Shown piece after piece: positions 381 through 28,200 of a stretch of 64,000 nt of DNA (within the stretch, counting starts at the first letter, position 1; each line of letters begins with the position of its first letter). Under the pieces are notes generated by a model. It was not told the origin of the DNA. It searched no databases and saw only the letters and a program-made list of their open reading frames with translations. The translations under genes were made by a program, and so were the position numbers. The DNA is from Parachlamydiales bacterium (GTDB taxonomy: Bacteria > Chlamydiota > Chlamydiia > Chlamydiales > JAEYWL01), in NCBI GenBank assembly GCA_020054065.1, contig JAGVLX010000021.1, positions 17,262-81,261 of the forward strand, read 5' to 3'.

Positions 381-1247
381 TTATCGACCTTGACGATATC
401 TTCCTCTGCTTTGATCAGCAGTATTTTCATTTAAATCTTCGTCTTGATCCTCAGTATCTTCATCTAAATCATTTCCCTGATTATAATATTCTTGTCCGTA
501 GTTCCGTTCCGTGCCATAGGCATTTTCATCGCGATCTTCATCGAATGCGTCCTGATCTTCCTGACTCTGCCAACGACTATTTTTTCCCCAGTTTCCTCTT
601 CCTTCAAACTGAGAACGATTGCCCGAAGGTTCATTCCAATCTGGTTGCGAATCCCTTCCGTACCCTGAGTTCCCATATTGGCGGTTGCCGGAGGGTTCGT
701 TCCATTCTTGTGACCCCCTTCCATAACCTGTATTTTCATCTTGCCAATTGCCAGTATTTTGACTTCTCATTTGATTTCCACCGCGGTTACCCATGCGCTG
801 GCCTCCCGATCTTTGACTTCCTGAACGATTACCTCCACGCTGGGTGCCTGAAAGATTGCGCGATTGATTGCCGTAGTTTTGATTGTAATACTCATCTTGA
901 CTAGAAGAGCCTTGTCCATACCCTCCTTGGCCCCCTTGGCCTTCATTCCATTGTCTACCTTGTGTCCAAGAATCTTCTCCAGCATAGGATCTGCCGCCGC
1001 CCCAATCTGAACGAGCGTTCGAACGTCCATAGTTTGAGTTTTCATTATAGCCTCGCCCGCTTTTTCCGTAATTTACATCATTATCTTCAAGATCATATTC
1101 TCTTCCATAACGCGATTGGGATCCCGAGCGCATATCTTGCTGACGGCTTTGGTCACGTGAGCTCTGATTTCTGCCTCTTTGGGATCCTTGAGTTTGGTTC
1201 CCTCTGCTTTTAGAGGTTGAGCGAGAAGTTGAACGTCTAGTTGTCAT
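381..1247 (-). CDS. Intrinsically disordered G/N/Q/S/R-rich protein with interspersed Trp/Tyr, an RS-rich N-terminus and an acidic C-terminal tail (288 aa)
   Basis: Longest frame, with ATG and strong SD (AAGGAG, 6-nt spacer). Almost no aliphatic residues. WNEPSGNR occurs twice. Other frames in this region are low-complexity shadows. Confidence 0.7.
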   Translation of the reverse strand: MTTRRSTSRSTSKSRGNQTQGSQRGRNQSSRDQSRQQDMRSGSQSRYGREYDLEDNDVNYGKSGRGYNENSNYGRSNARSDWGGGRSYAGEDSWTQGRQWNEGQGGQGGYGQGSSSQDEYYNQNYGNQSRNLSGTQRGGNRSGSQRSGGQRMGNRGGNQMRSQNTGNWQDENTGYGRGSQEWNEPSGNRQYGNSGYGRDSQPDWNEPSGNRSQFEGRGNWGKNSRWQSQEDQDAFDEDRDENAYGTERNYGQEYYNQGNDLDEDTEDQDEDLNENTADQSRGRYRQGR

Positions 1248-1553
1248 ACCATGCTCCTTAGATTAAACATTAAAACCTATTTCTACTAAAGGAAGAGACC
1301 CGGAAACCTGCTCTTCTTTATAGAATTTATGAGGATCTTCCATATCCGGTGCAATCCTAAAAATTTCATGAAAAGTGAGGAAAAATTCCAAGCATTTAAG
1401 AATCAAAACGTGCAATAAAATGAAAATAAACGGGAGTTTTTATGCTATTTATTCCCGTTTTAGTGCGGATGGGAATGGTATCTTAGATATTAAAATTAAA
1501 TTTTAAAAAATTAAAATAATATTTATCATTAGGATTGTAACAAAAGGAGAATT

Positions 1554-1712
1554 ATGAGCCTCTACACACTACTGTTAATTATTCTTATTTTGATCTTAAT
1601 CGGAGCCTTGCCAACGTGGCCTTATAGTACTGGCTGGGGATATGGCCCAAGCGGATTGCTGGGAGCCATTGTTCTCATTTTATTAATCTTGATCTTACTC
1701 GGCAGAGTGTAG
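1554..1712 (+). CDS. DUF3309-like small membrane protein (52 aa), below the ORF-track cutoff
   Basis: ATG with AAGGAGA 4 nt upstream. Translation is MSLYTLLLIILILILIGALPTWPYSTGWGYGPSGLLGAIVLILLILILLGRV. The core PTWPYS.GWGYGPSG flanked by two hydrophobic helices matches my recollection of the DUF3309 family. A terminator follows. Confidence 0.65.
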   Translation: MSLYTLLLIILILILIGALPTWPYSTGWGYGPSGLLGAIVLILLILILLGRV

Positions 1713-1720
1713 ATTAAGAG

Positions 1721-1758
1721 AAAAAGGGAAAGAAGTTTTCACTCCTTTCCCTTTTTTT
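1721..1758. terminator. Bidirectional rho-independent terminator
   Basis: Stem aaaaagggaaag (1721-1732) / ctttcccttttt (1745-1756) with an A-run on one side and a T-run on the other. It sits between the convergent DUF3309-like and yciF-like genes. Confidence 0.6.
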
Positions 1759-1783
1759 ATCACGTAAAGACTTTCGCGCTAAC

Positions 1784-2314
1784 CTATCTACTAACTGCTT
1801 GAGCATTGATCCCTGAAGTAATCCAGTTACCCTCTGCTAGCTTTGTTAACGCTTTATTCGTTTTTCCTTCTTCATCTAAGATTTCTTGAAGATTCGACTC
1901 GACTTCTTCCAATCCTAAATGATGGGCAAAGGTTCTTAGGGTTCCATACGTTGCGATTTCATAGTGCTCAATTTTTTGAGCTGCACCAATTAAAGCCGCA
2001 TCTTCTACGAATGGTGGATACCGATGTTTAATCACTTCTTCAGATTCTTCTAAAAGACCTTTGATGGCTTCACATTCTTCTCCTTCAGGGTCTGCTCCTA
2101 AAAGTGAAAACACTTTCTCTAAGCGATCTTTCTGCCCTTTGGTTTCCGTTAAATGCTTTTTAAAAGCATCTTTCAGCTCTTTCGATTTAGCAGCCTCAAT
2201 CATTTTGGGCATATTTTTAACAATTTCAGTTTCCGCATTATAGATGTCTCTTAATTGGTCGAGAAACATCTCATAAAATTCATCGTAATGTTGACCATTG
2301 TTTTTTTTAACCAT
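1784..2314 (-). CDS. yciF: YciE/YciF-family ferritin-like stress protein (DUF892), 176 aa
   Basis: Aligns by eye along its whole length with E. coli YciF (for example DAALIGAAQKIEHYEIATYGTL versus DAALIAAAQKVEHYEIASYGTL). SD AAGGAGG. Confidence 0.85.
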   Translation of the reverse strand: MVKKNNGQHYDEFYEMFLDQLRDIYNAETEIVKNMPKMIEAAKSKELKDAFKKHLTETKGQKDRLEKVFSLLGADPEGEECEAIKGLLEESEEVIKHRYPPFVEDAALIGAAQKIEHYEIATYGTLRTFAHHLGLEEVESNLQEILDEEGKTNKALTKLAEGNWITSGINAQAVSR

Positions 2315-2347
2315 ACAATCCTCCTTGTGAGAGAGCGTACTAATATT

Positions 2348-2623
2348 TTAGAATCTTTTATTTTTTTGAGTAGGAACCTTATGTTCTTCCAAATCCTCAT
2401 CTAGATCTTCGAGAGGTTGATCACGATTGAACTTTTTTTCCCAAGTTGAAAGTTCGTTTTCAGCTTTCTCTTTGGTATAGCCGTAATATTTTTGCAATCT
2501 GCCTAACAGTTCTTCTCGTTTTCCATCAATTTGAGTAATGTCATCATCAGTGAGTTTCCCCCACTGTTGCTTGACTTTCCCTTTGAATTCTTTCCACATT
2601 CCTTTGAATGAATCTTTATTCAT
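2348..2623 (-). CDS. csbD: CsbD/YjbJ-family general stress protein (91 aa)
   Basis: Typical CsbD pattern: KGMWKEFKGKVKQQWGKLTDDDITQIDGKREELLGRLQKYYGYTKE. Confidence 0.85.
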   Translation of the reverse strand: MNKDSFKGMWKEFKGKVKQQWGKLTDDDITQIDGKREELLGRLQKYYGYTKEKAENELSTWEKKFNRDQPLEDLDEDLEEHKVPTQKNKRF

Positions 2624-2645
2624 ATAATCTCCTATTGGTTTTAAA

Positions 2646-3797
2646 TTAAGGTTTTAGAACGACTTTTAAACAACGATCTTGCTTATCATTAAAAATTTTA
2701 TATCCTTTTTTAGCATCGCTTAAGGGCAATGTGTGCGTAATGATGTCATCTAAAACCACTTTCCTTTCGCGAACTAAATTTGTTAATTCACTTAAACCAC
2801 TTGGCAATGGCACAGGTCCGGATTTCAATGTAAGGGCTTTATCAAATAATTGGCCTAAAGAGAAATTGGAATAGTTACCACCGTACACGCCAATAGCTGA
2901 TACAATCCCGCCTCGTCTTACGCCGCTCATAGCGGATTGCAACGCATTGATTGAACCCGCTTGTTGACCGAATGCATTAATCATTTTTTCCCAAAAACTT
3001 TGTTGCGCCTCTAATCCAACGGCATCAATGCACACATCCGCTCCCCGTCCCTCAGTCATTTCGCGTATTTTTTCCACCGCATTAACTTTTTTTGCATGGA
3101 TGGTTTCAGACTTAGCAGTTTGTTTTGCAAGATCTAATCGATAATCTAAAACGTCAATCCCAATCACCCTGCCTGCGCCTTGAAGCCAAGCTGCTTTCTG
3201 CGCCATAATCCCTACTGGGCCGCAGCCAAAGACAGCTACAGTCTCTCCGCCTTTAAGTTCACATCTTTCAACTGCCGCCCATCCTGTAGGAAAAATATCG
3301 GTAAGAAATAATACTTCTTCGTCTTTTAACTGATCATCAACCTTTATGACGCCAAACTTCGCCCAAGGGACGCGCACATACTCAGCTTGTCCCCCATCAT
3401 AATTTCCATTCCCTTCACCTAAACCGAACACTCCGCCACCCTTTTCTTTATCATTTCCTTCGGGCCCATAGTGATGGTTCGTATTTTGGCAGTGTGGAGG
3501 CAATCCATGCGCGCAGAAATAACATTGCCCACATCCGATGATGCAAGGAACGAGGACTCGATCCCCCTTCTTTACATGGGTGATGTTTTTACCGACTTCC
3601 TCGACAATTCCCATGAATTCATGACCCAAATGAATGGGTTTTTCAATGGGAAACAGTCCATTATAGAAATGGAGATCCGTTCCACAGATGGCGGTTGAGG
3701 TGACCTTAATGATCATATCGTTAGGCTTTAAAATGGTGGGATCTGGTACTTCCTCCACTTCAACTTTTTTGGCCTTATGAATCACGACAGCTTTCAT
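2646..3797 (-). CDS. Zn-dependent alcohol/formaldehyde dehydrogenase-like (MDR family), 383 aa
   Basis: Catalytic-Zn motif GHEFMGIVEEVG, structural-Zn cysteines CGQCYFCAHGLPPHC, and Rossmann motif VFGCGPVG. Confidence 0.85.
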   Translation of the reverse strand: MKAVVIHKAKKVEVEEVPDPTILKPNDMIIKVTSTAICGTDLHFYNGLFPIEKPIHLGHEFMGIVEEVGKNITHVKKGDRVLVPCIIGCGQCYFCAHGLPPHCQNTNHHYGPEGNDKEKGGGVFGLGEGNGNYDGGQAEYVRVPWAKFGVIKVDDQLKDEEVLFLTDIFPTGWAAVERCELKGGETVAVFGCGPVGIMAQKAAWLQGAGRVIGIDVLDYRLDLAKQTAKSETIHAKKVNAVEKIREMTEGRGADVCIDAVGLEAQQSFWEKMINAFGQQAGSINALQSAMSGVRRGGIVSAIGVYGGNYSNFSLGQLFDKALTLKSGPVPLPSGLSELTNLVRERKVVLDDIITHTLPLSDAKKGYKIFNDKQDRCLKVVLKP

Positions 3798-3806
3798 AGT
3801 GTATCC

Positions 3807-4142
3807 TTATTGCTGTGGATTTGTGGCTTTATTTTCAGTTTTCTTGGGTGTCTGCTGATCAAAGGGTGAGTGGCTTTTATTTTGATCTTTCAAAATCGCA
3901 TTTTGGGAAGGAGTATCAGGACTAGTGGGAGTCGGGATCGAAGAGTGGTATACGTCTTTTATCTGAATGTTAGTATCATTAGAGGTTTTTGGGGTACTCA
4001 TAGTTTGTTCAGAAGGCGTAAATCCATAATTATTAGGGTTTGCTGGTGATAAATTTTCATACTTTTGAGTATGCGGATTATACTGATCTGCATAAGAATG
4101 GAACGTGAGCGCGATAAATAGGGCGGATAAAATAAATTTCAT
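3807..4142 (-). CDS. Small secreted low-complexity protein (about 111 aa from the internal ATG)
   Basis: The ORF is open to 4178, but the ATG at 4142 (AGGTG upstream) starts a signal peptide MKFILSALFIALTFHSYA. The mature part is P/T/S/N/Q-rich, similar in character to the 77..316 product. Confidence 0.45.
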   Translation of the reverse strand: MKFILSALFIALTFHSYADQYNPHTQKYENLSPANPNNYGFTPSEQTMSTPKTSNDTNIQIKDVYHSSIPTPTSPDTPSQNAILKDQNKSHSPFDQQTPKKTENKATNPQQ

Positions 4143-4150
4143 ACACACCT

Positions 4151-5305
4151 TCAAGGTTTTAAGACAACTTTGACACACTCTTCATCTTTATCATTAAAGA
4201 TTTTGTAAGCGTGAGAGGCTTTGTCCAAGGGAAGTTTATGACTGATGATATCGTGAAGAACCACTTTTTTCTCTTTAACTAGTTTTAGCAGGGTATCAAT
4301 GTAATGATGTACAGGCGCTTGACCTGAACGTATCGTAATTCCCTTATCAAAAATTTGACCCAGGGGAAAATCTGAAAACTTTGTCGCATAGACGCCCAGA
4401 ATGGAAACAGTGCCGCCCCGACGAACAGCACTTAAGCAGTTCGTAAGCACTTTCATGGTTCCACCCTCTTGTTTAATTGCGCCTTTCGTTTTTTCATAAA
4501 TAGTTCGATCCGCTTCCATTCCTACAGCATCTACACAGACATCTGCTCCCCGGCCTTCTGTGATATTTCTTATCATTTTGATGACGTCATCTTGGTTATA
4601 GTTAAACGTTTCAGAATTAGCTGTTTTTTTAGCCATTTCCAACCGATAGTCTAAAATATCAATGCCGATGACTCTTCCGGCTCCATTTAACCATGCCGCT
4701 TTTTGCGCCATAATGCCTACCGGACCGCATCCAAAAACCACAACCGTTTCTCCACCTTTTAAACGTGCCCAATCAATTCCTGACCAACCCGTGGGAAAGA
4801 TATCAGTTAAAAAAAGCACTTCTTCATCGCTTAAATCATCATCAATTTTTCTTGGGCCTACGTCTGCATAAGGAACTCTCACATACTCTGCTTGGCCCCC
4901 ACTATAACCCCCGTATAGGTCTGTATAACCAAAAAGAGCGCCTCCTTTTTCTTTTTCGTCTCCTTCAGGTCCATACATTTCTGGATTTGAATTTTCACAA
5001 TGACCAGGCAAAGAGTGATGACAAAAGAAACACTGCCCGCAAGCAATAGGAAAAGGAACTACGACACGGTCCCCTTTCTTTAAATTTTTAACATTTTTAC
5101 CCACCTCTTCGACGATCCCCATAAACTCATGACCTAAGACCATCGGCTTTTTTTGAGGGATAAATCCGTTATAAATATGAAGATCTGATCCGCAAATGGC
5201 CGTTGAAGTCACTTTCAAAATGACATCATTTTCATCTTCGATTTTGGGATCAGGAACATGATCAACTTGAACTTTTTTTGAACTATGGAATACCAACGCC
5301 TTCAT
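4151..5305 (-). CDS. Zn-dependent alcohol/formaldehyde dehydrogenase-like, paralog of 2646..3797
   Basis: Same motifs as its paralog (GHEFMGIVEEVG, CGQCFFCHHSLPGHC, VFGCGPVG). Well over half of positions are identical to the neighbour by eye. The ATG at 5305 (GGAG upstream, MKALVFH parallels MKAVVIH) is preferred over the TTG at 5335. Confidence 0.85.
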   Translation of the reverse strand: MKALVFHSSKKVQVDHVPDPKIEDENDVILKVTSTAICGSDLHIYNGFIPQKKPMVLGHEFMGIVEEVGKNVKNLKKGDRVVVPFPIACGQCFFCHHSLPGHCENSNPEMYGPEGDEKEKGGALFGYTDLYGGYSGGQAEYVRVPYADVGPRKIDDDLSDEEVLFLTDIFPTGWSGIDWARLKGGETVVVFGCGPVGIMAQKAAWLNGAGRVIGIDILDYRLEMAKKTANSETFNYNQDDVIKMIRNITEGRGADVCVDAVGMEADRTIYEKTKGAIKQEGGTMKVLTNCLSAVRRGGTVSILGVYATKFSDFPLGQIFDKGITIRSGQAPVHHYIDTLLKLVKEKKVVLHDIISHKLPLDKASHAYKIFNDKDEECVKVVLKP

Positions 5306-5363
5306 ATCTTTACTCCGTACTTGATTTAGACTCAAGCTGACTAAAAAACAAAGTGTTAGGTAA

Positions 5364-5389
5364 TGACATGGCAGCGTGCTGCCATGTCA
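5364..5389 (-). terminator. Rho-independent terminator after the BON-domain gene
   Basis: Palindrome tgacatggcag-cgtg-ctgccatgtca, followed on the minus strand by a T-rich run (ttgtttttt). Confidence 0.5.
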
Positions 5390-5406
5390 AAGAAAAATAG
5401 TGGGAA

Positions 5407-6051
5407 TTATCTATTGACTGTGACTTGGTTATTAACGGCTTTGACGCCATCAATTTTTTTAATTTCGTTGGTGATGTATTGAACGTCGGAGTCTTTATCC
5501 ACTAAACCCGTTACTGTCACATTCCCATTGCTGGTATTGAGTTGAATATTTTTATACCCTTTCGTAAACCAGCCATCGCCTAACTTTTCGCGGATTTGTT
5601 TATTGATACGGCGATCGGCATCGGTTGCCGCAGTATCTAGTGAAGATTTTGTGTCTGTGTCTGTGTGGTTAGCAATATAGTTTCTATTGCTTTGATTATT
5701 ATAGGAAGACTTAGGAGCCACATTGATTTGATTGATGACATTCACCACGCCATCCACTTTTCTGACTTTATCTTCAATTTTTTGTTTTTCATCTTGCGTA
5801 TCTACCGAACCTCTTAAGGTTACGGTGCCGTTGACCACATCTGCCGTGACGTCTTCATAGCCTCTGGAAAACCAACCCGATTTGAGGTTGTCTTGTATCT
5901 CCTTGCGAATTTTAGCATCGTTGCCATTTGTGGTTTGGGTATTGCCATTGCTATAAGAATTGCTATTGTTGCTGTAAGTATTGTAAGCTGCTTGTACAAC
6001 TCCGAATTGCGCAATCAACCCGATTGCAGCTAGAAGACCTATTTTTTTCAT
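5407..6051 (-). CDS. Secreted OsmY-like protein with two BON domains (214 aa)
   Basis: Signal peptide MKKIGLLAAIGLIAQFGVVQA. Two repeats of the BON pattern (V.NGTVTLRGSVD...KV.GV..V.NQ..V). SD AGGAGG. Confidence 0.85.
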   Translation of the reverse strand: MKKIGLLAAIGLIAQFGVVQAAYNTYSNNSNSYSNGNTQTTNGNDAKIRKEIQDNLKSGWFSRGYEDVTADVVNGTVTLRGSVDTQDEKQKIEDKVRKVDGVVNVINQINVAPKSSYNNQSNRNYIANHTDTDTKSSLDTAATDADRRINKQIREKLGDGWFTKGYKNIQLNTSNGNVTVTGLVDKDSDVQYITNEIKKIDGVKAVNNQVTVNR

Positions 6052-6070
6052 AAAAACCTCCTGTGGAATT

Positions 6071-7660
6071 TTATTTTATAGGTTTAATTTTACTCTCTTT
6101 TTCTTGTTCAACATTCACTTTTTCTAAGCCATGTAAAGCTGGGCCGCATAAAACTTCACCATTCACATCAAAGCGGGATCCATGACATGGACAATCCCAC
6201 GAGTTTTCAATGGGATTCCAATGAACTTCCCCATTGAGATGCGTACATCTCGCTGAAAGTGGATACAGGTTTCCTTGGTGATCTTTGTAAACAGCAATCT
6301 TATGGATGCCATTTTGAATCACGCTTCCCGTGCCGCGCTCTATTTGATCTTCATGATGACATTTTTCGGGTGTGATCCAATCTAGATATTGATTAGCTGT
6401 ATTCAAGTTTTCTTCAAAAAAGCTACCCATTGCATTGAGCGTTTTGCGAGAAGGGTCATAAATTTTTTCCCATGGGTTTGCTCTTGCCATGATCAAATCT
6501 GTTATTAATAGTCCTGCTATCGTGCCATGCGTTAATCCATTTCCTGAATCGCCTGTTCCGATAAACACGTTCTTAGAATCAAGGGGATTACGTCCAATAA
6601 ACGCGAGCGAATCAACCGGTTCTAAAATTTGTCCTGACCATTGGTAGGTGATTTCCTTTAATGCGGGAAACCGTTGCTTTGACCAATTTTTTAGATTTTG
6701 AAACCGTTCTTCATACTCGTGATCTTGACCTGTACGCGTATCCTCTCCTCCAATTAACAGCATAAAATGGGTCGCAAAATCTGGATCTGTCGACGACAGC
6801 TGACAGACTCTAATATAATGATAAGGATCGCCAGTATCCCAGTAGAGTCCTTTAGAAATATCTGTTCTGGGTATTTTTCCTCCAATCACATAGGTTCTAT
6901 AAGCCGCCTGTTTGGTATGAATGACAAAGCGGTCATTGATGGGACTGTTGGTTGCGACGATCAGATATTTGGATTTTATCTTATGTCCATGGCTCGTTTT
7001 AACTAGACAAGAGCTTTCATCATTTTCAAAAGAATCGGCAGAAGTAAAATTATAGATCAACCCTCCTTGTCTCGTGATTGCGCCTGTCAATCCATTTAGA
7101 TATTTGACCACATCAAATTCAGCTTGATTGGGAAAAAAGATGCATGGCCCTGTATCAAATGATTGGATGGGAGCCCGCTGAACAATTCTTGCCGCAGATA
7201 AATTGAGTTGATGAAGGGCATCTAATTCTCTACTTAATGTTTCAGGTTTATCGTCGGCATGAAGAAAAAGGTAACCATTAACGCGTTCAAAATCACAATT
7301 AATTTTTTCATCTAGGATAATTTGTTCAATACGATCCACGGCGGTGCGGTGGCTTTCCAACGCGAGCTGAGAATTTGCAACTCCAAAAAGATCGATCAAA
7401 TCATAGAAGCGGTCATCTAATGCATAGGTCAAATGTCCAGTTGTACGGAATGTTTCCCCGCTTCCAATTTCGCCATCATCAAGAACAACGACCGAAACGC
7501 CCTCTTTGGAAAGAAAATAGGCGCAGCTAAGACCTGTAATTCCTGCGCCTACGATGCAAACATCAGTTTCTAAATCTTGCTCTAAAGCAGGAAATAACTT
7601 AACTGTGTTCGTTCCCTTCCAGAACGATTTTGTACCCAACTGCTCTTGTTTCATAATCAT
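6071..7660 (-). CDS. FAD-dependent oxidoreductase with C-terminal Rieske [2Fe-2S] domain (about 527-529 aa)
   Basis: Dinucleotide-binding motif VCIVGAGITGLSCAYFL. Rieske motif CTHLNGEVHW...CPCHGSRF. The architecture resembles B. subtilis YhfW. The second ATG (7654) has the better SD spacing. Confidence 0.8.
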   Translation of the reverse strand: MIMKQEQLGTKSFWKGTNTVKLFPALEQDLETDVCIVGAGITGLSCAYFLSKEGVSVVVLDDGEIGSGETFRTTGHLTYALDDRFYDLIDLFGVANSQLALESHRTAVDRIEQIILDEKINCDFERVNGYLFLHADDKPETLSRELDALHQLNLSAARIVQRAPIQSFDTGPCIFFPNQAEFDVVKYLNGLTGAITRQGGLIYNFTSADSFENDESSCLVKTSHGHKIKSKYLIVATNSPINDRFVIHTKQAAYRTYVIGGKIPRTDISKGLYWDTGDPYHYIRVCQLSSTDPDFATHFMLLIGGEDTRTGQDHEYEERFQNLKNWSKQRFPALKEITYQWSGQILEPVDSLAFIGRNPLDSKNVFIGTGDSGNGLTHGTIAGLLITDLIMARANPWEKIYDPSRKTLNAMGSFFEENLNTANQYLDWITPEKCHHEDQIERGTGSVIQNGIHKIAVYKDHQGNLYPLSARCTHLNGEVHWNPIENSWDCPCHGSRFDVNGEVLCGPALHGLEKVNVEQEKESKIKPIK

Positions 7661-7717
7661 CCTAGACTAGCATTTGGAATGCTGGTTTTTACTTTGAAAG
7701 GTCTAAAAGCATTCGGC

Positions 7718-7798
7718 TTAAATAATGCCCAATAGTTTTAGAATGATGAGTACAGAGAGAGGAACCCCAAGAAGCCACAAAATTAACATTCTGCCCAT
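7718..7798 (-). CDS. Possible 26-aa hydrophobic peptide (MGRMLILWLLGVPLSVLIILKLLGII)
   Basis: ATG with GAGGT about 6 nt upstream and a single TM-like helix. It resembles small stress-island membrane peptides. It is too short for codon statistics. Confidence 0.3.
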   Translation of the reverse strand: MGRMLILWLLGVPLSVLIILKLLGII

Positions 7799-8164
7799 AC
7801 GTCTACCTCGTTGTTTCTCTCGACTATAAAGATACACGGGTTTCTATCAAAATATTTTTTTAAACTGAGGCGAATTTATTAACTTTATATCACTACAGCA
7901 TCCACACTTAATTGTGGATGGAGAATAAAAAAATACAATAAACGCTCCCGTTTATTATTTTTATTAAAAAAACACCATTAATACTCCCTTTTTATTTTTA
8001 CTTAAAAATTTACTTAGTCTGAGAGAGTTGATAATAGGCCTTCCGTCGCCCTCACTTTTTTGATTGCGATTTTATGTTTGGGATCACATACGTATATTCA
8101 AGAAGGATACGAATTTTCGTTTGCCTTTTAGCTAACGAATTGTAACAAATTAAGGAGGACTCTC

Positions 8165-8824
8165 ATGCCTACAAGAAAATCCTCAAATCGTTCGCGCCAA
8201 TTAACTGGACGCGGATCCCCCACTACCTCGAGACAAGCTTCCACTCCCAACCGTGGAAGGACGTCTGCGCAGAAAAATACAACTTCAGGGCGATCTTCAA
8301 CACAACGGGGACAAACAAATCGTTCTAATGCTCAAGGCGGAAATCGCTCCCAAAGTAGAAGTCGTCAAGAATCCGGTAGAACGGGAACATCGCGTTGGGA
8401 ACGAGACGATGAAAATAGGATGGATCAAAGTGGTCGTGGAGGAACTCAAAGAAGAGCGCAAAATGTAACAGAAAATAGACGTGGAAGTAACGTGAACACG
8501 CGTGGCAGAAACTTTGGTTATGAAAACCCAGGCAGACAGCGTCCAAGAAAAGACACAGAAAGAGCGCAAGATCGCTTCCAACAAACTGAAAGACAAAACG
8601 CGCAAGGAAGAAGAAATCCTGAGTTTGGTCAATACGATATTGAATTTGAAGAGGATTTTCAAGAAGAGAGAAATCCGCGCCAAAGAGGCGAGATGCGCAG
8701 TCAAAACCAGCGTTCGGGGAGACAAGGACAAGAAACGGGCTGGGGCGAATTAAGTGAAGAATATGATGAAGAGGGCGAGTATACTCCTTCAAATAGAAGA
8801 ACTGCCTCTAGTCGCAGAAGATAA
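8165..8824 (+). CDS. Intrinsically disordered R/S/T/Q/N/G-rich protein with an acidic C-terminal region (219 aa), paralog-like to 381..1247
   Basis: ATG with AAGGAGG 6 nt upstream. The N-terminus MPTRKSSNRSRQ parallels MTTRRSTSRSTS of the 288-aa protein. A strong terminator follows. Confidence 0.7.
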   Translation: MPTRKSSNRSRQLTGRGSPTTSRQASTPNRGRTSAQKNTTSGRSSTQRGQTNRSNAQGGNRSQSRSRQESGRTGTSRWERDDENRMDQSGRGGTQRRAQNVTENRRGSNVNTRGRNFGYENPGRQRPRKDTERAQDRFQQTERQNAQGRRNPEFGQYDIEFEEDFQEERNPRQRGEMRSQNQRSGRQGQETGWGELSEEYDEEGEYTPSNRRTASSRRR

Positions 8825-8844
8825 AATGAAATTCCCATGTTGGT

Positions 8845-8882
8845 CGGAAAAATGACTTAAGTCATTTTTCCGATTTTTTTTA
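8845..8882 (+). terminator. Rho-independent terminator
   Basis: Perfect 28-nt palindrome cggaaaaatgactt/aagtcatttttccg (8845-8872) followed by a T-run (8874-8882). Confidence 0.7.
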
Positions 8883-8890
8883 AGGGCTTT

Positions 8891-9757
8891 ATGAAAACAG
8901 AAAAAAAGACAAAGAAGAGAAAACCTCAACACCAGCGTCCCCCTGGCATCCAATCCAAAATGCAGCCCATCCCGCATCCCGAAAAAGATTCATCCAGAGG
9001 AAGTGACAAGCTTTTAAATAAAGTAGCGATCATCACGGGAGGAGACAGCGGGATTGGAAGAGCAGTCGCGGTTGAATTTGCCAAAGAAGGGGCAAATGTC
9101 GTTGTCGTTTATTTAAAAGAGCATGCTGATGCAAAGGAAACGCAAAAATTAGTAGAGCAAAAAGGAAGAGAATGCCTTTTAATCTCTGGAGATGTGGGGA
9201 AAGAATCGTTTTGCAAAACGATTGTTCACCAAACAATCCAACAATTCGAAAAAATCGATATTCTTATTAATAATGCAGCAGAGCAGCATCCTCAAAAATC
9301 TCTTTTAGCGATTACTGAAAAGCAACTTGAACGGACATTTAGAACGAATATCTTTTCCTATTTCTTTTTGACTAAAGCAGCGTTGCCGCATCTTCAAAAA
9401 ACACGTGGTGTCATCGTTAACACCACATCTGTCACGGCATATCGCGGAAGCGATCACCTATTAGATTATTCAGCAACGAAAGGAGCCATTGTTTCCTTCA
9501 CACGGTCGCTCTCTCTTGCGCTTATAGATAAAGGAATACGAGTAAATGGAGTAGCCCCTGGACCGATTTGGACACCACTCATTCCTTCTACCTTTCCCCC
9601 GAAAAAGGTAGCGACATTTGGTTCCGATGTGCCCATGAAACGAGCGGGAGATCCTTCAGAAGTCGCTCCCTGTTATGTTTTTCTTGCTTCGGATGATTCT
9701 TCATATATCTCCGGACAGATTTTGCATCCTAATGGCGGCGAAATCATCAACACCTAG
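8891..9757 (+). CDS. SDR-family oxidoreductase of the YghA/YdaD/YhdF (general stress protein 39) type, 288 aa
   Basis: N-terminal PPGIQSKMQPIP, TGGDSGIGRA, YSATKGA and a C-terminal region all align by eye with E. coli YghA. Confidence 0.9.
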   Translation: MKTEKKTKKRKPQHQRPPGIQSKMQPIPHPEKDSSRGSDKLLNKVAIITGGDSGIGRAVAVEFAKEGANVVVVYLKEHADAKETQKLVEQKGRECLLISGDVGKESFCKTIVHQTIQQFEKIDILINNAAEQHPQKSLLAITEKQLERTFRTNIFSYFFLTKAALPHLQKTRGVIVNTTSVTAYRGSDHLLDYSATKGAIVSFTRSLSLALIDKGIRVNGVAPGPIWTPLIPSTFPPKKVATFGSDVPMKRAGDPSEVAPCYVFLASDDSSYISGQILHPNGGEIINT

Positions 9758-10196
9758 TCGTCATCTGAAAAACATGAATTGTTTTTGATCGAGCATCAGC
9801 GAGATCCCAGACTATTTGTGCCGGGCTTGCAGCCCTCGACCAAATTTTTGATCTGCATCCCAGCCCTGCACTCGCTTCGCACGTTTGGACTGGGCTATAA
9901 AACTGCCGGACCTTCGGTCCTCATGAATCGCGAGTTTCTTGCAGATTCCAGAGCACCGCAGGGGCGGTCATTTGCTCTGACTGGTACTCTTTCACTCGTG
10001 CCAACTCCGAAGGTCCGAAGGACCGACAATTTTAAAGCCTAGTCCGCAGTGAGCGTAGCGAACGGAGGGCTAGGTAAAAGATAAAATCGGATTGAGCCCT
10101 GTAAGGACGGCACAAAGACAAACCCTCACTGAATTAGCTTGATGCGTATGTGCAGAGCACCGTACTCCAAAAGTACGCTGCGCGCACGGTAAATGT
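9758..10196. repeat. Hairpin-dense, comparatively GC-rich non-coding block at a convergent gene junction
   Basis: Many local stems (ggacc-ttc-ggtcc, ggtcc-gaa-ggacc, accgc-aggg-gcggt, cgtact-ccaaa-agtacg, cctag...ctagg). Also an 11-nt long-range inverted repeat cggaccttcgg (9907-9917) / ccgaaggtccg (10007-10017). Confidence 0.5.
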
Positions 10197-10436
10197 TTAA
10201 TGGACTAACTCGTGATTTTGGTTAAACTCTACCGGCCGGCCGGTTTTTAATTCTTCTTTCCTTTGAGGAAAAGGTGCGTTTCTCTTTTTTTCCAGCTCGA
10301 CAAGAGCTTTTTCAAGCGCTTCTTCTGTCATGGATGCGATTGTGAGCCCAGGAGTCCAGTAGACTGCATTTCTTACGCGTTCAATAAGGTCCAAAGAGAG
10401 ATGGATTGTGATTCTTTGTTTTACAGTTTTTGGCAT
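10197..10436 (-). CDS. Ribbon-helix-helix (CopG/ParG-like) DNA-binding protein, 79 aa
   Basis: The pattern RITIHLSLDLIERVRNAVYWTPGLTIASMTEEALEKALVELE is a typical RHH fold. The tail PFPQRKEELKTGRP recalls small ParA-partner centromere binders (from memory). No ParA gene is adjacent. Confidence 0.55.
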   Translation of the reverse strand: MPKTVKQRITIHLSLDLIERVRNAVYWTPGLTIASMTEEALEKALVELEKKRNAPFPQRKEELKTGRPVEFNQNHELVH

Positions 10437-10451
10437 ATTCTCACTTCAATT

Positions 10452-10766
10452 TTATGTTTTGCTTTCATCAGGTAATTTTTTAATGATTTGTTTAAAATCC
10501 TCCCACTTTAAAGCTGGCCATACTTCGACGGACGCGTGACCGAATGACCTTACAAGAGATGAAACTTTAAATGCGGTTTCCAAATCGTTTGCTTCAAAAA
10601 TATCCACATAATCGTAATCGGAAAAGGTGGCGTAGTTCGCAAGCCATTTCACCTCGGGACACACTTTTTTTATCTTTGCTTCTACTTGTTGCTGAAGTTC
10701 AATAAGGGTTTGCTTAGAAGGATGAACTTCTTTTCCAATTAGCCTTGTTAACATAATGTAGATCAT
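10452..10766 (-). CDS. GYD-domain protein (104 aa)
   Basis: MIYIMLTRL... then SDYDYVDIFEANDLETAFKVSSLVRSFGHASVEVWPAL, which matches the GYD family pattern (G-Y-D, apd.e.a, s.G...t.T). Confidence 0.7.
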   Translation of the reverse strand: MIYIMLTRLIGKEVHPSKQTLIELQQQVEAKIKKVCPEVKWLANYATFSDYDYVDIFEANDLETAFKVSSLVRSFGHASVEVWPALKWEDFKQIIKKLPDESKT

Positions 10767-11031
10767 CTATCCCTCTCCTAAATTGATTTGGATAGGATTA
10801 AATAAACGGAGATCGTTTGTATACTATTCAAATATACAAAATTGGCAGGGATGCGGTGTTGATTTAGTCTCTGTGTTTTTAAGCATCTATTCACCTAGTT
10901 TGGTTTGTAAAAACTTAAACCGAGCGTAACACCTAAAAAATAATGAATTTACCTAATCACATGTTATATGCATTAGGTTAATAAAAAAACATTTTTTGGC
11001 AAGATTTTTTTGAGTACATCTTGCGTGAAAG

Positions 11032-11370
11032 CTATCTATTTTCAACCGCTATACGATTAAAAACTGCATTCACACCATCGGTTGCCCGAATTGTACTAAG
11101 CACTTTCTCAGCATCTTCAGAGCTTTGAACAGTGCCGGAAACCTCAACATCACCATTTTTTGTACTGATGGCGATGGAATCATAACCTTGTAAGCCTTCT
11201 TGCTTCAAGCGGTCGCGGATGCGTGCATTGATCACACGATCGGAATCAGTTAGGGAAAAATCTTGGGACATCTCTTTTTTCGCCGGTACATCTTGCGGGC
11301 GAACATTCGTTTGAGCTATTAGCGATTGAGTGATCACTATCATCGCGGAGAGTAAAAACATTTTACGCAT
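11032..11370 (-). CDS. Secreted single-BON-domain protein (112 aa)
   Basis: Signal peptide MRKMFLLSAMIVITQSLIAQ. BON pattern ISTKNGDVEVSGTVQS...ATDGVNAVFNRIAV. Confidence 0.8.
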   Translation of the reverse strand: MRKMFLLSAMIVITQSLIAQTNVRPQDVPAKKEMSQDFSLTDSDRVINARIRDRLKQEGLQGYDSIAISTKNGDVEVSGTVQSSEDAEKVLSTIRATDGVNAVFNRIAVENR

Positions 11371-11498
11371 AGATCCTCTTGAAAAATGGGACTTTTGCTG
11401 TCGATCATATGTTTTTTTGAATTGCCTGCAAATTTTAATTATTAATCTGAAGGCGTATTAGACATATGTCTATCATAATAAGCATTTTATTGTAATTG

Positions 11499-11575
11499 TT
11501 CCACTCTGTGATCTCTGTGTTCTCTTCGGTTAATTACAATTTTTCACCACAGAGAACACAGAGATCCCAGTGGAA
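11499..11575. repeat. Word-repeat hairpin (CACAGAG/CACTGAG family), copy 1, 3' of the SDR gene
   Basis: Perfect 15-bp stem atctctgtgttctct (11511-11525) / agagaacacagagat (11551-11565), plus outer stem ttccact / agtggaa. Confidence 0.7.
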
Positions 11576-11591
11576 CCCCATGTCAAAAGGG

Positions 11592-12314
11592 CTACGTGTA
11601 GATCATTTTTTTGGTCATACCGCCATCGACGATGAAATTCTGTCCGGTCATAAATGAAGCGTTTTCGCTGATAAGAAATCCAACAATGGCTGCAATATCT
11701 TCAACAGTGCCTACTCGTCCGCAAGGGTGTTGTTGATGGTCAGATTTTTTTAACGGTGTATCTTCTGTATGAATCCATCCGGGACTGATGCAATTCACAC
11801 GAATCTCAGGTCCTAAGCTGATGGCAAGAGCATGCGTCAGGGATACAATGCCGCCCTTGGAAGCACTATAGGCTTCCGTGTTGGGTTCTGATTGCAGATA
11901 GCGTGTAGAAGCGATGTTAACGATGACACCTTTTTGTTTGCGTAACTCTGGAATTGCATGTTTGCAACACAGAAATGTTCCGGTTAAGTTAGCATCGATG
12001 GTTTTTTGCCACTCTTTCAGGGAGAGTTTTTCCGGTGCAGGACGTTTTTCTCCGATGACAATTCCTGCGTTATTGATGAGAACGTCTAATTTGCCAAAAC
12101 GAGCGATCGTCTGTTTGATCAGTTTAGATACAGCCGTTTCGCTGCTGATATTGGTTTTAATGTATAGGATTCTAGAACGATCCGTTTGAAGTGCTTTGTG
12201 AGAAGGAGTCACAACATCGGCAATGACAACGCGATCGTGTTGTTGAAGAAGATACTGTACAATACCGGCGCCGATCCCATTGGAGCCACCGGTCACAATG
12301 GCTACCCGTTGCAT
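11592..12314 (-). CDS. Classical SDR (3-oxoacyl-ACP reductase/glucose dehydrogenase-like), about 240 aa
   Basis: TGGSNGIGAG, NNAG and YSASKGG motifs. The ATG at 12314 with GAGGA upstream is preferred, because the upstream GTG extension overlaps the hppA terminator hairpin. Confidence 0.85.
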   Translation of the reverse strand: MQRVAIVTGGSNGIGAGIVQYLLQQHDRVVIADVVTPSHKALQTDRSRILYIKTNISSETAVSKLIKQTIARFGKLDVLINNAGIVIGEKRPAPEKLSLKEWQKTIDANLTGTFLCCKHAIPELRKQKGVIVNIASTRYLQSEPNTEAYSASKGGIVSLTHALAISLGPEIRVNCISPGWIHTEDTPLKKSDHQQHPCGRVGTVEDIAAIVGFLISENASFMTGQNFIVDGGMTKKMIYT

Positions 12315-12333
12315 AGCGTATTCCTCTGTAAAT

Positions 12334-12360
12334 TTGGAGCGCAGAGTCACTGCGCTCCAA
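12334..12360 (-). terminator. Hairpin 3' of hppA
   Basis: Perfect 11-bp stem ttggagcgcag / ctgcgctccaa with loop agtca, located 12 nt after the hppA stop. The U-tract is weak. Confidence 0.5.
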
Positions 12361-25260: not shown

Positions 25261-28200
25261 ATGGAACCAGCCCCTGGTACTTTCCACCCACATCAAATTT
25301 CGCCTCCTCCTGTAGCAGCAGTTCAATCTGCGCCGCAAAGGCGACATAAAAACCACCATGTCCCCCGCCAACCCCGCTACACACCTAAGTACAAACCCAC
25401 CGATCAAATCAAAGCAACAGCTAACGACTGGGGTCTCACACGTCCTAACGGTCAATTGGAACAGAGGTTATTCGACACAGTTGGAACCATCCCGCTCGTG
25501 CCAGAAGAGGTGGAGCGCGTCAAGCAGGTCGTTCTTGAAAGAAAAGTTTCTGTTACCTACAAAACGTTTTCTTTTAACACCTCCTTCCTGATCAAAGAAG
25601 TCCTAAATCATATCAATGAAAATATCGTCAAAAAAGGGAAGGGCAGTACGAAGGAATTATTTGAGCAATTCTATTCGGCAGGCTCGGTTAACCTTTCAGC
25701 GACGGGTTTAAGCTACGCCCAGAGAACCTTTAAAGAACTTCTTAAAAAACACTTCTCTCAAGAGCCAGATGATGCCATCGAAGGCAGACTAAAGGTTCTA
25801 TTTACAAACTTGTTAGTCGATTTTTTGAAGCTTAACTACGCCCAGTCAATCACGGATATCGACATTCAAGGGTTGCTCTTGCGCATGGAAAATATTCCAC
25901 CGAATTTTCTTTATGCAGTAAATCAATACTATACTGATTTTGTCCAATCGAAAATTCCCCCCATTCTAGATCAAGAATCGCGTAAAAAAGCCCTAGAATT
26001 ATTAAAAAAGAAAATTCCCGATAAAGATAAAAACTTCGATTGGCTGACTCTGGAGCATCCTCAATTTGAATGGCATGTTGTCAACAACATTGGTTTTGAA
26101 AAAGTGAAGGTCGTGCCAAACACCTATGGCATTGTTGCATTTGGAACCCGGGGGACTTTGACGGTCGACTTTTTAACCGATTACCTTCGCGAGCCTGTCG
26201 ACCGCTTTCCCACCATGCGCATCCCTATAAAGGCACTATTGGGTAGCGCGCAAGCGAATCGGGTGCCGCACATTGTCCCTGAAGGGAAGTTTGTCATTCA
26301 ATGTGTATTGGATGAAGTGTTTGGAGTGTATAGGCCATTGATGCATAAGCGGGATGCTTATATCGCCTCCGATTACAGCTTCAAAAAATTATTAAAAACA
26401 TCTGTAAAAGGGAAGGTGTGTGTTTCAAAACGTGAGGGCGACTACACCACAATCGATGAACTGTACCATGCCGCATCTAATGAATCACAAAATCCTGACA
26501 ATTCCGTTGTAAAAAAAATATTAAAAAAGCACCCGAACTATTTTGGAGAGTTTGATAAGCAACAATGGTTATTTTTCTATCACATGCTGAAAGATACCGA
26601 CTTGCTTTATGACCCTTGTTCAGCGATTGCGGTCACGTACAACACCTGCAAGATTTTAGATGGACGTCTTCCGCCGGAACAAATCACCAAGCTCATCGAT
26701 AAATTAAAGAAATATTGGGCAAAAGTTCCAGCTGGTGAACAAGAGAAATCTGTCATTTACGCTATTGGAAAGCTTCTTTGCGACCATTCTACCCCCTTAA
26801 AAACAAGAATGGCATTAATAAACGTCTGTGCTTTTATGTTTTGCCAATCGAACATCTTAGGGCAAACCGACTATTCAAAGGTCGTTGTCTATCCCCGTTC
26901 AAACGGAACTGAAGCGCTTTCAGAAATCTCCCTCCCGGGAGGAAAAAACCCCTACACCCTTCAAACCAGCGCCGCCCACATCAATTCTGATCTCAGTGCG
27001 GTACTCACCTATCTAAGGTCGCCACTAAGTGAAGAACAACAGCGTCTCATTCAAAGAGTCATCAAAGGGTTATTCCCCCACTTGCCGTTTCCTGCAGCCG
27101 GTCAATCCCAGATGGCTGCTGACCTGCCATTTTTCAAAATCAACTATGCGCTATTTGAGAAAGCTGCCACGGACTGCCTAAACGATGCTAATCATACACT
27201 TAGATTATTCGGCCGAACCCTATACTTAGGCTTCCAATCCATGTCTAGGGGAAATCCATCCCCCTACCCCCTCTTATTAAATCTATTTGAACTGACTGGG
27301 GATTGGGAATTTGAAAATTTAAAACTCAATATTCAATCTCTCGTAGGATTTAATGCGAACGACCCGGTCTTTGAATCCTTAAAACCGATGAACGTCGCCC
27401 ACCAAGATTCAGCCACTCATGCTCCTGTTTCTGTTTTAATGCAAGCGTTAGCAAGATTGCCTAAACATGCAGCGGTCGCTTATGGGCTCTGGCAAAAAAA
27501 AATCGTAGACTCCTCTTCAAACAACGCTTTCTTTAAACTTGATTCAACCCTGGCTTTGTTCAAAATTTTCCAATCCGATCAAATCGGATATGCCCTTAGC
27601 GTACTAGGCTATGCAGCTGAAAGTAAAATCATTAACGTGGAAACGCAGATCTTGTGGCTTAACCAAATCATTAATTTACTTACACGACGTCCTGAAGAAA
27701 TTCCCATTCACATGCCGCGAATCGAACTGATCGCCCGGGCCCTAGGAGAGCGAACAATCACCCTCACAGAGCGCGGACAACTTTATGAAGCCTTAAGGTT
27801 AACTCCGGTCCATTCCCGTTCGTATCATTTCACACAGCTCGTGAAATCATTGGCTCCTGTACAAAAGGTGACGTCTGTTTCTCCTCCGCCTATTACAGCG
27901 ATGATGGCAGCTCCGATGGCGTTCATCACGCGCAGCACGATTCTTGCTTCGCCTCCGCCCGCCCCAGCCAGCGAAGGCAGTTCCAAATCATCATCCACCC
28001 CTACTGATTCAACACCCGCGGCAACCTTAGGGTCTGCGACGCCAAATGTGACTCCTCCGACGGTCATCGAAGTCATGAGACCGCTAACGCCGGGTGGATC
28101 GAGCGGATCACGGCGCGCTAAAAAAGCGATGGAAGCCGTTTCACAGCCCTTCCCCAACATCGGGGCAGCGCCTGCTGACGAAAAGAAAGTCGAACCAAAA

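Follow-up and report, generated by a model that had tools for sequence, protein, structure and literature searches.

A conserved arginine-rich ORF in a chlamydial stress-gene island encodes a candidate hydrophilin-type stress protectant

The sigma-S-dependent yciGFE locus of Salmonella and E. coli combines the gene for YciG, a hydrophilin with KGG repeats, with two DUF892 genes, yciF and yciE, and the CsbD-like protein YjbJ is listed in a table of sigma-S-dependent small open reading frames (ORFs) in the same work (PMC5437024). Hydrophilins as a class are recognised by a glycine content above 6% and a grand average of hydropathy (GRAVY) below -1 (PMC4190154), and a review credits proteins of this kind, such as DtpA of Acinetobacter baumannii, with the protection of enzymes and the promotion of tolerance to desiccation (PMC13552118). 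Here we describe A219, the 219-aa product of an ORF at positions 8165-8824 (+ strand, stop codon included) of a 64,000-nucleotide stretch of contig JAGVLX010000021.1 (the whole of this stretch is hereafter termed the window), where it lies in an island of general-stress genes that includes members of both the DUF892 and CsbD families. An earlier note made from the sequence alone (the original prediction) had drawn attention to this ORF. Comparison with close relatives indicates that A219 is a conserved gene, and we read its product, with moderate confidence, as a lineage-restricted, disordered, hydrophilin-type stress protectant.

Orthologs of A219 were found by way of the gene that follows it, a YhdF-like short-chain dehydrogenase (SDR; 8891-9757, + strand) recognised by its Pfam matches. 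The cluster mates of this SDR at 90% identity led to two Sequence Read Archive (SRA) contigs, L009 (run SRR17413116) and L010, which are independent assemblies from close relatives and which both carry a called 262-aa gene immediately 5' of the same SDR. In protein alignments, the 262-aa products are 88-89% identical to A219 and differ from it by a single in-frame indel of 44 codons (132 nt). The ratio of nonsynonymous to synonymous substitution rates (dN/dS, Nei-Gojobori method) between A219 and its orthologs is 0.21-0.27, with a significant excess of synonymous changes (P=7e-9, Fisher's test), and the substitutions at codon positions 1, 2 and 3 number 12, 15 and 36, respectively. Neighbouring genes range from 0.01 to 0.19 in dN/dS; among them, the BON protein (0.19) is similar to A219, and the SDR (0.07) is lower. 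Two ORFs of 144 and 155 aa overlap the A219 region in antisense orientation, but neither is the selected frame, because the excess of substitutions would fall on codon position 1 of the 144-aa ORF and on position 2 of the 155-aa ORF. Moreover, no frame other than the sense frame runs uninterrupted through the whole length of A219 and of its two orthologs.

The signals that flank the coding sequence are conserved as well. A consensus Shine-Dalgarno sequence, AAGGAGGA (8152-8159, + strand), stands 5 nt before the ATG and is identical in L009 and L010, and an intrinsic terminator lies 3' of the stop codon (8842-8883, + strand), consisting of a 15-pair hairpin (8842-8875) and a T-run; both had been claimed in the original prediction and both were found as described. 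The terminator is conserved in the two relatives, in which the changes are confined to loop positions, plus one A-to-G change that preserves a G-T pair. The upstream region (7980-8164, + strand), which presumably holds the promoter and 5' untranslated region (5' UTR) and is shared with a divergent string of stress genes, is identical to that of L009 at 170 of 185 nt (92%), compared with ~77% at synonymous sites of the coding sequence, which points to constraint on promoter or 5'-UTR sequence upstream of A219. The suggestion that the gene forms an independent unit agrees with its own Shine-Dalgarno sequence and terminator, but fits less well with the position of the T-run, which in the window, L009 and L010 ends only ~8 nt before the start codon of the SDR; from this spacing, the SDR is probably expressed through read-through or from a promoter inside A219. 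Because A219 has syntenic orthologs, an indel that keeps the frame, a low dN/dS and conserved Shine-Dalgarno, terminator and upstream sequences, the comparison identifies it as a real protein-coding gene under purifying selection, in line with the earlier view, which the conserved start codon also supports, that the ORF is not spurious.

The protein encoded by this gene has an unusual composition. Arg accounts for 19.6% of residues, Ser, Gln and Gly for 11% each, Glu for 9.6%, Thr for 9.1% and Asn for 8.2%, while Lys (1.4%) and Ala (3.2%) are scarce, Cys and His are absent, and hydrophobic residues make up only 10%; the net charge is +17. The coordinates, strand and N-terminus of the 219-aa product, its content of two Trp and four Tyr, and its proposed layout could all be verified from the sequence. 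An acid-free, polycationic N-terminal segment (residues 1-68; 8165-8368, + strand) contains 15 Lys/Arg residues and no Asp or Glu, and is rich in Ser, Thr, Gln, Asn and Gly as well as in RG/GR dipeptides, which are recorded with it at 16 versus 9.4 in shuffled sequences (P=0.015); only a single RGG/GGR tripeptide is found in A219. Further along on the same strand are two acidic-aromatic motifs, EEDFQEE (residues 162-168; 8648-8668), which is invariant across the orthologs, and EEYDEEGEY (residues 198-206; 8756-8782), which is retained apart from one E-to-A change in L010. The last nine residues form a basic tail, RRTASSRRR (8795-8821, + strand), that is likewise invariant. The aromatic residues are closely tied to acidic ones, since 10 of 11 (91%) have an acidic residue within two positions, compared with 43% in shuffled sequences (P<0.001).

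The indel that separates A219 from its orthologs follows this modular layout. The 44 additional in-frame codons are located between codons 134 and 135 of A219 (8566-8567, + strand) and encode a basic stretch together with an acidic-aromatic module, NDFEAEDFDEG. As a result, the motif E[DE][FY][DQ]EE occurs three times in the 262-aa orthologs, at intervals of 35-40 residues (120 and 105 nt in L009), but only twice in A219, and the difference in copy number suggests that A219 evolves through gain and loss of a unit made up of a basic stretch and an acidic-aromatic module.

A219 is predicted to be disordered. AlphaFold2 in single-sequence mode returned a mean predicted local distance difference test score (pLDDT) of 50.7 and a predicted template modelling score (pTM) of 0.14, with one helix of six residues and otherwise almost no secondary structure. 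Both the glycine content and the hydropathy fall within the limits that define hydrophilins: glycine amounts to 11.0% in A219 and 11.8% in the 262-aa ortholog, with GRAVY values of -2.12 and -2.08, respectively. A second ORF of the island, the 288-aa B288 (381-1247, - strand), which is rich in Gly, Ser, Asn, Gln, Arg, Tyr and Trp and has an acidic tail, also falls within these limits (16.7% Gly, GRAVY -2.09). No other ORF of at least 80 aa in the window comes close to A219 and B288 in hydrophilicity, the CsbD protein of the island ranking third, and the charges of the two proteins are segregated (kappa) to different degrees relative to random expectation (z=1.7 for A219 and z=3.6 for B288). 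In its glycine content above 6%, GRAVY below -1, predicted disorder and stress-gene context, A219 resembles DtpA and DtpB and the hydrophilin class as delimited by Garay-Arroyo and Battaglia; this class is not a homology family, and the likeness is one of these properties. Charge blocks with acidic-aromatic repeats, such as those of A219, are not a described hydrophilin feature. Profile searches identified no family for A219 or B288 in Pfam (E up to 0.1) and none for A219 in NCBIfam (E up to 1), sequence searches of the PDB gave nothing significant for A219, and a scan of the window with Rfam gave no match.

The genomic context of A219 is dominated by stress and redox functions. By Pfam matches, the island (381-12350) contains genes for DUF3309, DUF892 (YciE/YciF type), CsbD, two zinc-type alcohol dehydrogenases (ADHs), three BON proteins, an FAD/Rieske oxidoreductase, two SDRs and a GYD protein. 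Those for FAD/Rieske, BON, the two ADHs, CsbD and DUF892 form a general-stress string with short intergenic gaps that runs divergently from A219 (1784-7660, - strand). Within the string's surroundings, B288 is located 0.5 kb downstream of DUF892, with the DUF3309 gene between them, while 5.8 kb separate DUF892 from A219, which is encoded on the other strand. The GC content at third codon positions (GC3) is 0.30-0.42 in the island, with the exception of the 52-codon DUF3309 gene (0.51), versus 0.44-0.57 in other sampled genes of the window, and A219 and B288 share both the low GC3 and the codon style of the island, including its AGA-rich Arg usage. The low GC3 suggests either a horizontal origin of the island or a common, expression-linked codon style.

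The island appears to belong to a chlamydial lineage. The window also encodes the type III secretion protein SctV (55380-57545), IF-2 and a pyrophosphatase, which fit with an environmental chlamydia, and the source is probably one related to the Parachlamydiaceae. The SDR of the window has an identical database entry, and its homologs from Parachlamydiaceae and Protochlamydia, named 'putative oxidoreductase YhdF', are ~75% identical. DUF892, CsbD and BON genes are clustered with this SDR in three chlamydial relatives, two of which add a YflT-like protein to the cluster; L009 is syntenic with the window.

Set against YciG and the KGG family (PF10685), A219 is likewise small, extremely hydrophilic, Gly-containing and predicted to be disordered, and it lies in an island with DUF892 and CsbD-type genes, though at the distance from DUF892 and in the orientation given above; unlike them it is Arg-rich and not Lys/Gly-rich. 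To place this arrangement in a broader setting, we surveyed the DUF892 neighbourhoods of 80 soil-metagenome loci for ORFs of at least 100 aa that fall within the hydrophilin thresholds and lie within 1.5 kb of DUF892. Such hydrophilin-like ORFs are ~27-fold enriched near DUF892 (11 observed versus 0.41 expected, with a few of the 11 being duplicate contigs or doubtful ORFs), and the PF10685 model matches metagenomic DUF892 neighbours at E=4e-14 to 3e-6. No significant similarity was detected between A219 or B288 and the hydrophilins next to metagenomic DUF892 genes. By analogy, A219 and B288 would resemble the KGG-DUF892 arrangement in function and position without being members of the KGG family. 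Among the metagenomic loci (L039, L045, L057, L063, L064, L073, L076 and L079), hydrophilin ORFs of 200-270 aa often precede DUF892. Several of the metagenomic ORFs near DUF892 carry a KGG motif at the N-terminal end and, after it, very long tails rich in Asp, Glu and Tyr and in Arg, Gly and Ser, with N-termini such as MATRNSGRRGF.

From its composition and context, we infer that A219 is a disordered, hydrophilin-type stress protectant of a chlamydial general-stress island, restricted to its lineage, and we hold this interpretation with moderate confidence; its stress induction, abundance and protective activity are inferred in the same way, and it possibly acts in part through binding of nucleic acids. 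In the mechanism that we propose, the conserved divergent control region would drive A219 together with the FAD/Rieske-BON-ADH-CsbD-DUF892 string on the opposite strand, and the trigger would be water, osmotic or stationary-phase-type stress, or the extracellular stage. These stress genes receive no mention in the main text of the Protochlamydia developmental transcriptome paper. The strong Shine-Dalgarno sequence would lead to abundant A219, while the hairpin would pass only a fraction of the transcripts into the YhdF-like SDR. The unfolded protein would present an acid-free N-terminal third that is polycationic and rich in Arg, Ser and Thr, then two to three modules, each a basic Gln/Asn/Arg/Gly stretch that ends in an E[DE][FY][DQ]EE motif, and finally the short basic tail. 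Such a blocky polyampholyte may serve as a hydrated molecular shield or glass-former, and contacts between Arg and aromatic residues and between charge blocks could cause it to self-associate and to coat proteins or nucleic acids, so that aggregation and damage during water loss would be reduced.

If this function is correct, an unrelated Arg-rich family with acidic-aromatic modules joins the few known bacterial hydrophilins, and does so in a lineage of obligate intracellular bacteria for which little is understood of how they survive outside the host. The locus also illustrates how islands of DUF892, CsbD and BON genes may repeatedly recruit non-homologous, fast-evolving disordered proteins that homology-based annotation misses, and an orphan ORF that looked unannotated becomes a verified gene with a testable role. 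The result is nevertheless modest, in that it concerns one taxonomically restricted stress protein and not a new system.

Several observations weigh against the protectant reading of A219. Hydrophilin is a physico-chemical class, and values within its limits do not establish function. Neither A219 nor B288 contains a KGG motif (Pfam, E up to 0.1), and searches with A219 revealed no homology to a characterised hydrophilin family, with no match to LEA, CsbD or GsiB-type families, although the CsbD model does recognise the true CsbD gene of the island. With 19.6% Arg and a net charge of +17, A219 departs from the usual Lys/Gly-rich composition of bacterial hydrophilins, and these values fit nucleic-acid binding equally well. 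Scanning of the + strand upstream of A219 revealed no consensus sigma-70-type promoter, and sigma-28-like and other promoter candidates read by hand in this region are too weak to count. At other SDR-anchored loci (75-78% SDR identity), no A219-like gene is present at the syntenic position, and its absence from these relatives suggests that A219 is confined to a narrow clade and dispensable for the wider group. Finally, the codon-usage log-likelihood is -1.1 for the sense frame of A219 versus 17.4 for frame +2; since compositional bias makes this measure uninformative on reading frame, the coding case as we read it rests on the comparative data and not on intrinsic codon statistics.

Searches for the proteins themselves were uniformly negative. 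Neither A219 nor B288 had a match among 5.8 billion clusters searched by word index, A219 had none among 1.84 billion representatives searched exhaustively with phmmer, scans of GTDB genomes and JGI metagenomes with back-translated patterns gave no match, and exact look-ups of the SDR and the DUF892 protein of the window returned no contig. Both window proteins and the 262-aa orthologs are absent from protein collections, although recorded contigs do exist on which the 262-aa genes have been called; as ortholog-bearing contigs thus exist outside these collections, the null searches cannot be read as rarity or absence. A scan of GTDB genomes with the FAD/Rieske protein yielded only distant, non-syntenic loci in Pontibacter and Clostridium. 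In Pontibacter sp. H259 (L001:19959-21522), three adjacent orphan ORFs of 210, 198 and 73 aa (GRAVY -2.15, -1.71 and -1.60, respectively) are rich in Asn, Gln, Tyr, Arg, Glu and His and have neither a Pfam match nor significant similarity to B288. The hydrophilic ORFs of Pontibacter were considered as relatives of B288 and rejected, being dissimilar in sequence, 9 kb from the matched gene and surrounded by unrelated neighbours.

An alternative that overlaps and is compatible with the protectant reading, and that we regard as possible but unlikely as the principal role, is that A219 is a nucleic-acid-binding or -condensing protein of a protamine-, Dsup- or RGG-like kind. In this view, DNA, RNA or ribosomes would be the binding partners of its N-terminal third, the acidic-aromatic modules would form a tail with an autoinhibitory or competing function, and the nucleoid or ribosomes would be compacted or protected in a dormant extracellular stage. 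The Arg content, net charge, acid-free residues 1-68 and enrichment in RG/GR are all in keeping with this idea, and a basic body followed by an acidic tail is typical of nucleic-acid binders of the HMGB, SSB and Hfq types. Furthermore, Chlamydiae are known to condense their nucleoid with Hc1 (HctA) and Hc2 (HctB), which are small, basic, Lys/Ala-rich proteins without acidic tails. A219 resembles these two in being small, strongly basic and of low complexity, and the variation of Hc2 in length by repeat gain and loss recalls the 219- and 262-aa forms described here; however, A219 has little Lys or Ala, is rich instead in Arg, Ser, Thr and Gln, possesses acidic modules, and matches no Pfam or NCBIfam model of Hc1 or Hc2. 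Pfam, NCBIfam and PDB searches likewise revealed no similarity to a DNA- or RNA-binding domain, the solitary RGG/GGR tripeptide argues against an RGG-type protein, and the neighbours are general-stress and redox genes, not nucleoid genes. Since DNA-binding activity alone can give bacteria protection from desiccation (PMC11654893), a binding variant of the protectant role may apply to the Arg-rich A219.

A219 also shares features with eukaryotic Arg-rich or prion-like low-complexity proteins, such as FUS-type/RGG proteins and the tardigrade protectants of the Dsup and CAHS types, namely predicted disorder, a 'sticker' grammar of Arg and aromatic residues, and segregated charge blocks. The likeness to FUS-type proteins is strongest in B288, with its [G/S]-Y-[G/S] and RGG-type motifs. 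A219 is bacterial and has no homology to any of these proteins, and the resemblance is one of composition only.

The original prediction had regarded A219 and B288 as diverged paralogs of a small family, and with the upstream 10-mer that they share this becomes a proposal of common ancestry and co-regulation, which we consider unlikely. Several features speak for it. The two ORFs lie in one island, have the same low GC3 and the same preference for AGA/CGT, CAA and ACT codons, and encode the two most hydrophilic proteins of the window, both within the hydrophilin limits. Both proteins also present the same order of features, with an M-x-T-R-[KR]-S N-terminus, a basic body, an acidic region and a short basic tail. 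Within the first 12 residues, 5 of the 11 that follow Met are identical (P ~0.005 given local composition, for a comparison picked post hoc). The shared N-terminal pattern and layout are therefore present as claimed, but the layout is generic and the identities were chosen after the fact. Against common ancestry, BLASTP with B288 gave E=4.9 for A219 and E=1.2 for the 262-aa ortholog, and local and global alignment scores stayed within the range of whole-sequence and block-preserving shuffles, with z between -0.8 and 0.4 for A219 and between 1.1 and 2.4 for the ortholog (Smith-Waterman alignment of A219 with B288, z=0.4; block-preserving shuffles, z<0). The hhalign probability for the pair is 0.5%. 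The similarity is thus no better than that of shuffled low-complexity sequence, the yardstick that the original prediction had set for itself, and the claim of a paralogous family is not supported. The aromatic and acidic residues are also arranged differently, as the 28 aromatics of B288 stand mostly in [G/S/N]-Y/W-G contexts, without an acidic bias and alongside RGG motifs. As far as the sequences allow, A219 and B288 can be said to share an island, a codon style and a gross layout, and homology between them is not demonstrable.

The two genes also appear to have fared differently in L009, where A219 is kept. The B288 homolog (L009:1-470, - strand, compared with 300-1560, - strand, of the window) has lost ~630 bp, which removes codons 1-135 together with the sequence upstream of them, and carries a 1-nt deletion in a G-run and a 12-nt in-frame insertion. 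Its remaining 366 nt differ at 5, 12 and 25 sites by codon position, a pattern that indicates formerly coding sequence. Either this homolog has only recently become a pseudogene or its state is due in part to assembly; the large deletion looks real, and the frameshift could be an assembly error. On this evidence, B288 seems not to be uniformly maintained, having decayed in L009 while A219 was retained, which counts against a family kept as a pair.

Nor do the upstream regions point to a common operator. The 10-mer CCTCACTTTT occurs once per strand in the window, at 8050-8059 (+ strand) and 1371-1380 (- strand), with its 3' ends 105 and 123 nt before the respective ATGs; the word and both distances, counted from the 3' end, had been correctly predicted, while the former position had been given as 8049-8058. 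Words of at least 10 bases are common to 17% of pairs of random window segments of the same size and to 36% of mononucleotide shuffles, and in both L009 and L010 the site reads ACTAGTTTTT, making it the most variable patch of the otherwise conserved 185-nt upstream region. The 10-mer is accordingly judged to be a chance match that is not conserved in the orthologous regions, and its proposed role as a common promoter or operator element does not hold. Upstream of both genes we also observed a 12-mer, CTCCCGTTTATT, at 7945-7956 (+ strand) and 1425-1436 (- strand), which has three matches in the window at up to one mismatch, compared with 0.4 expected. It is located within AT-rich hairpins that are followed by T-runs and point toward the genes; L010 retains this element, and a deletion has removed it from L009. 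Although the 12-mer and the 10-mer occur in the same order before both genes, which could be taken as a sign of common descent, their spacing differs (105 versus 56 nt) and the 12-mer sits in an AT-rich hairpin that is polymorphic for indels. Neither word appears to be good evidence for a common operator.

A more elaborate version of the protectant reading, which we consider quite improbable though worth stating, is that A219 is a recently evolved, clade-specific, Arg-rich polyampholyte that condenses with nucleic acids and proteins by way of Arg-aromatic and charge-block interactions and vitrifies or shields the cytoplasm of the extracellular stage. It would then be a bacterial functional analogue of the tardigrade protectants Dsup and CAHS that changes by gain and loss of modules with a basic and an acidic-aromatic part, and B288 would be its independently arisen, FUS-like counterpart.

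It is very unlikely that A219 is instead a type III-secreted effector, with its disordered, Ser/Thr/Arg-rich N-terminus as secretion signal and with EEYDEEGEY, EEDFQEE and the Arg/Ser-rich body mimicking short linear motifs of an amoebal host, such as those of kinase substrates or of SR/RGG-like nuclear proteins. The SctV gene of the window shows that a type III secretion system is encoded, many chlamydial effectors are lineage-specific disordered orphans, and the polar, acid-free N-terminus is similar in A219 and B288. However, the gene has no chaperone, Inc-type or effector neighbours, is embedded in an island of cytoplasmic and periplasmic stress genes with which it shares its codon style, and matches no effector family in Pfam or NCBIfam. 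The last alternative, that A219 is a spurious reading of a purine-rich, stop-poor stretch whose true product is an RNA or an antisense ORF, could appeal to the two antisense ORFs, to the codon log-likelihood and to the absence of the protein from protein collections, but is effectively refuted by the low dN/dS, by substitution counts at the three codon positions that are incompatible with both antisense ORFs, by a sense frame that alone stays open in three sequences despite the 132-nt indel, by the conserved ATG, Shine-Dalgarno sequence and terminator, and by the gene callers that report the 262-aa ortholog on both SRA contigs.

Some further ORFs of the window deserve mention. Four large ones, at 25261-32268 (+ strand), 17107-18741 (- strand), 33675-35636 (- strand) and 47549-49828 (- strand), encode 2335, 544, 653 and 759 aa, respectively, and have no NCBIfam match (E up to 1e-5). 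Two small ones of 79 and 123 aa (77-316 and 3807-4178, both - strand) have no Pfam match and consist of a signal-like hydrophobic N-terminus followed by low-complexity sequence rich in Asn, Thr, Pro, Ser and Gln; the 123-aa ORF sits between the two ADH genes. Neither this 123-aa ORF nor the second ADH is present in L009, where gene calling breaks the ADH into three ORFs. When L009:2247-6292 is compared with 2646-8164 of the window, the interval that separates FAD/Rieske from the ortholog of A219 in L009 is seen to hold an extra YflT-like membrane protein of 201 aa and a BON protein of 124 aa.

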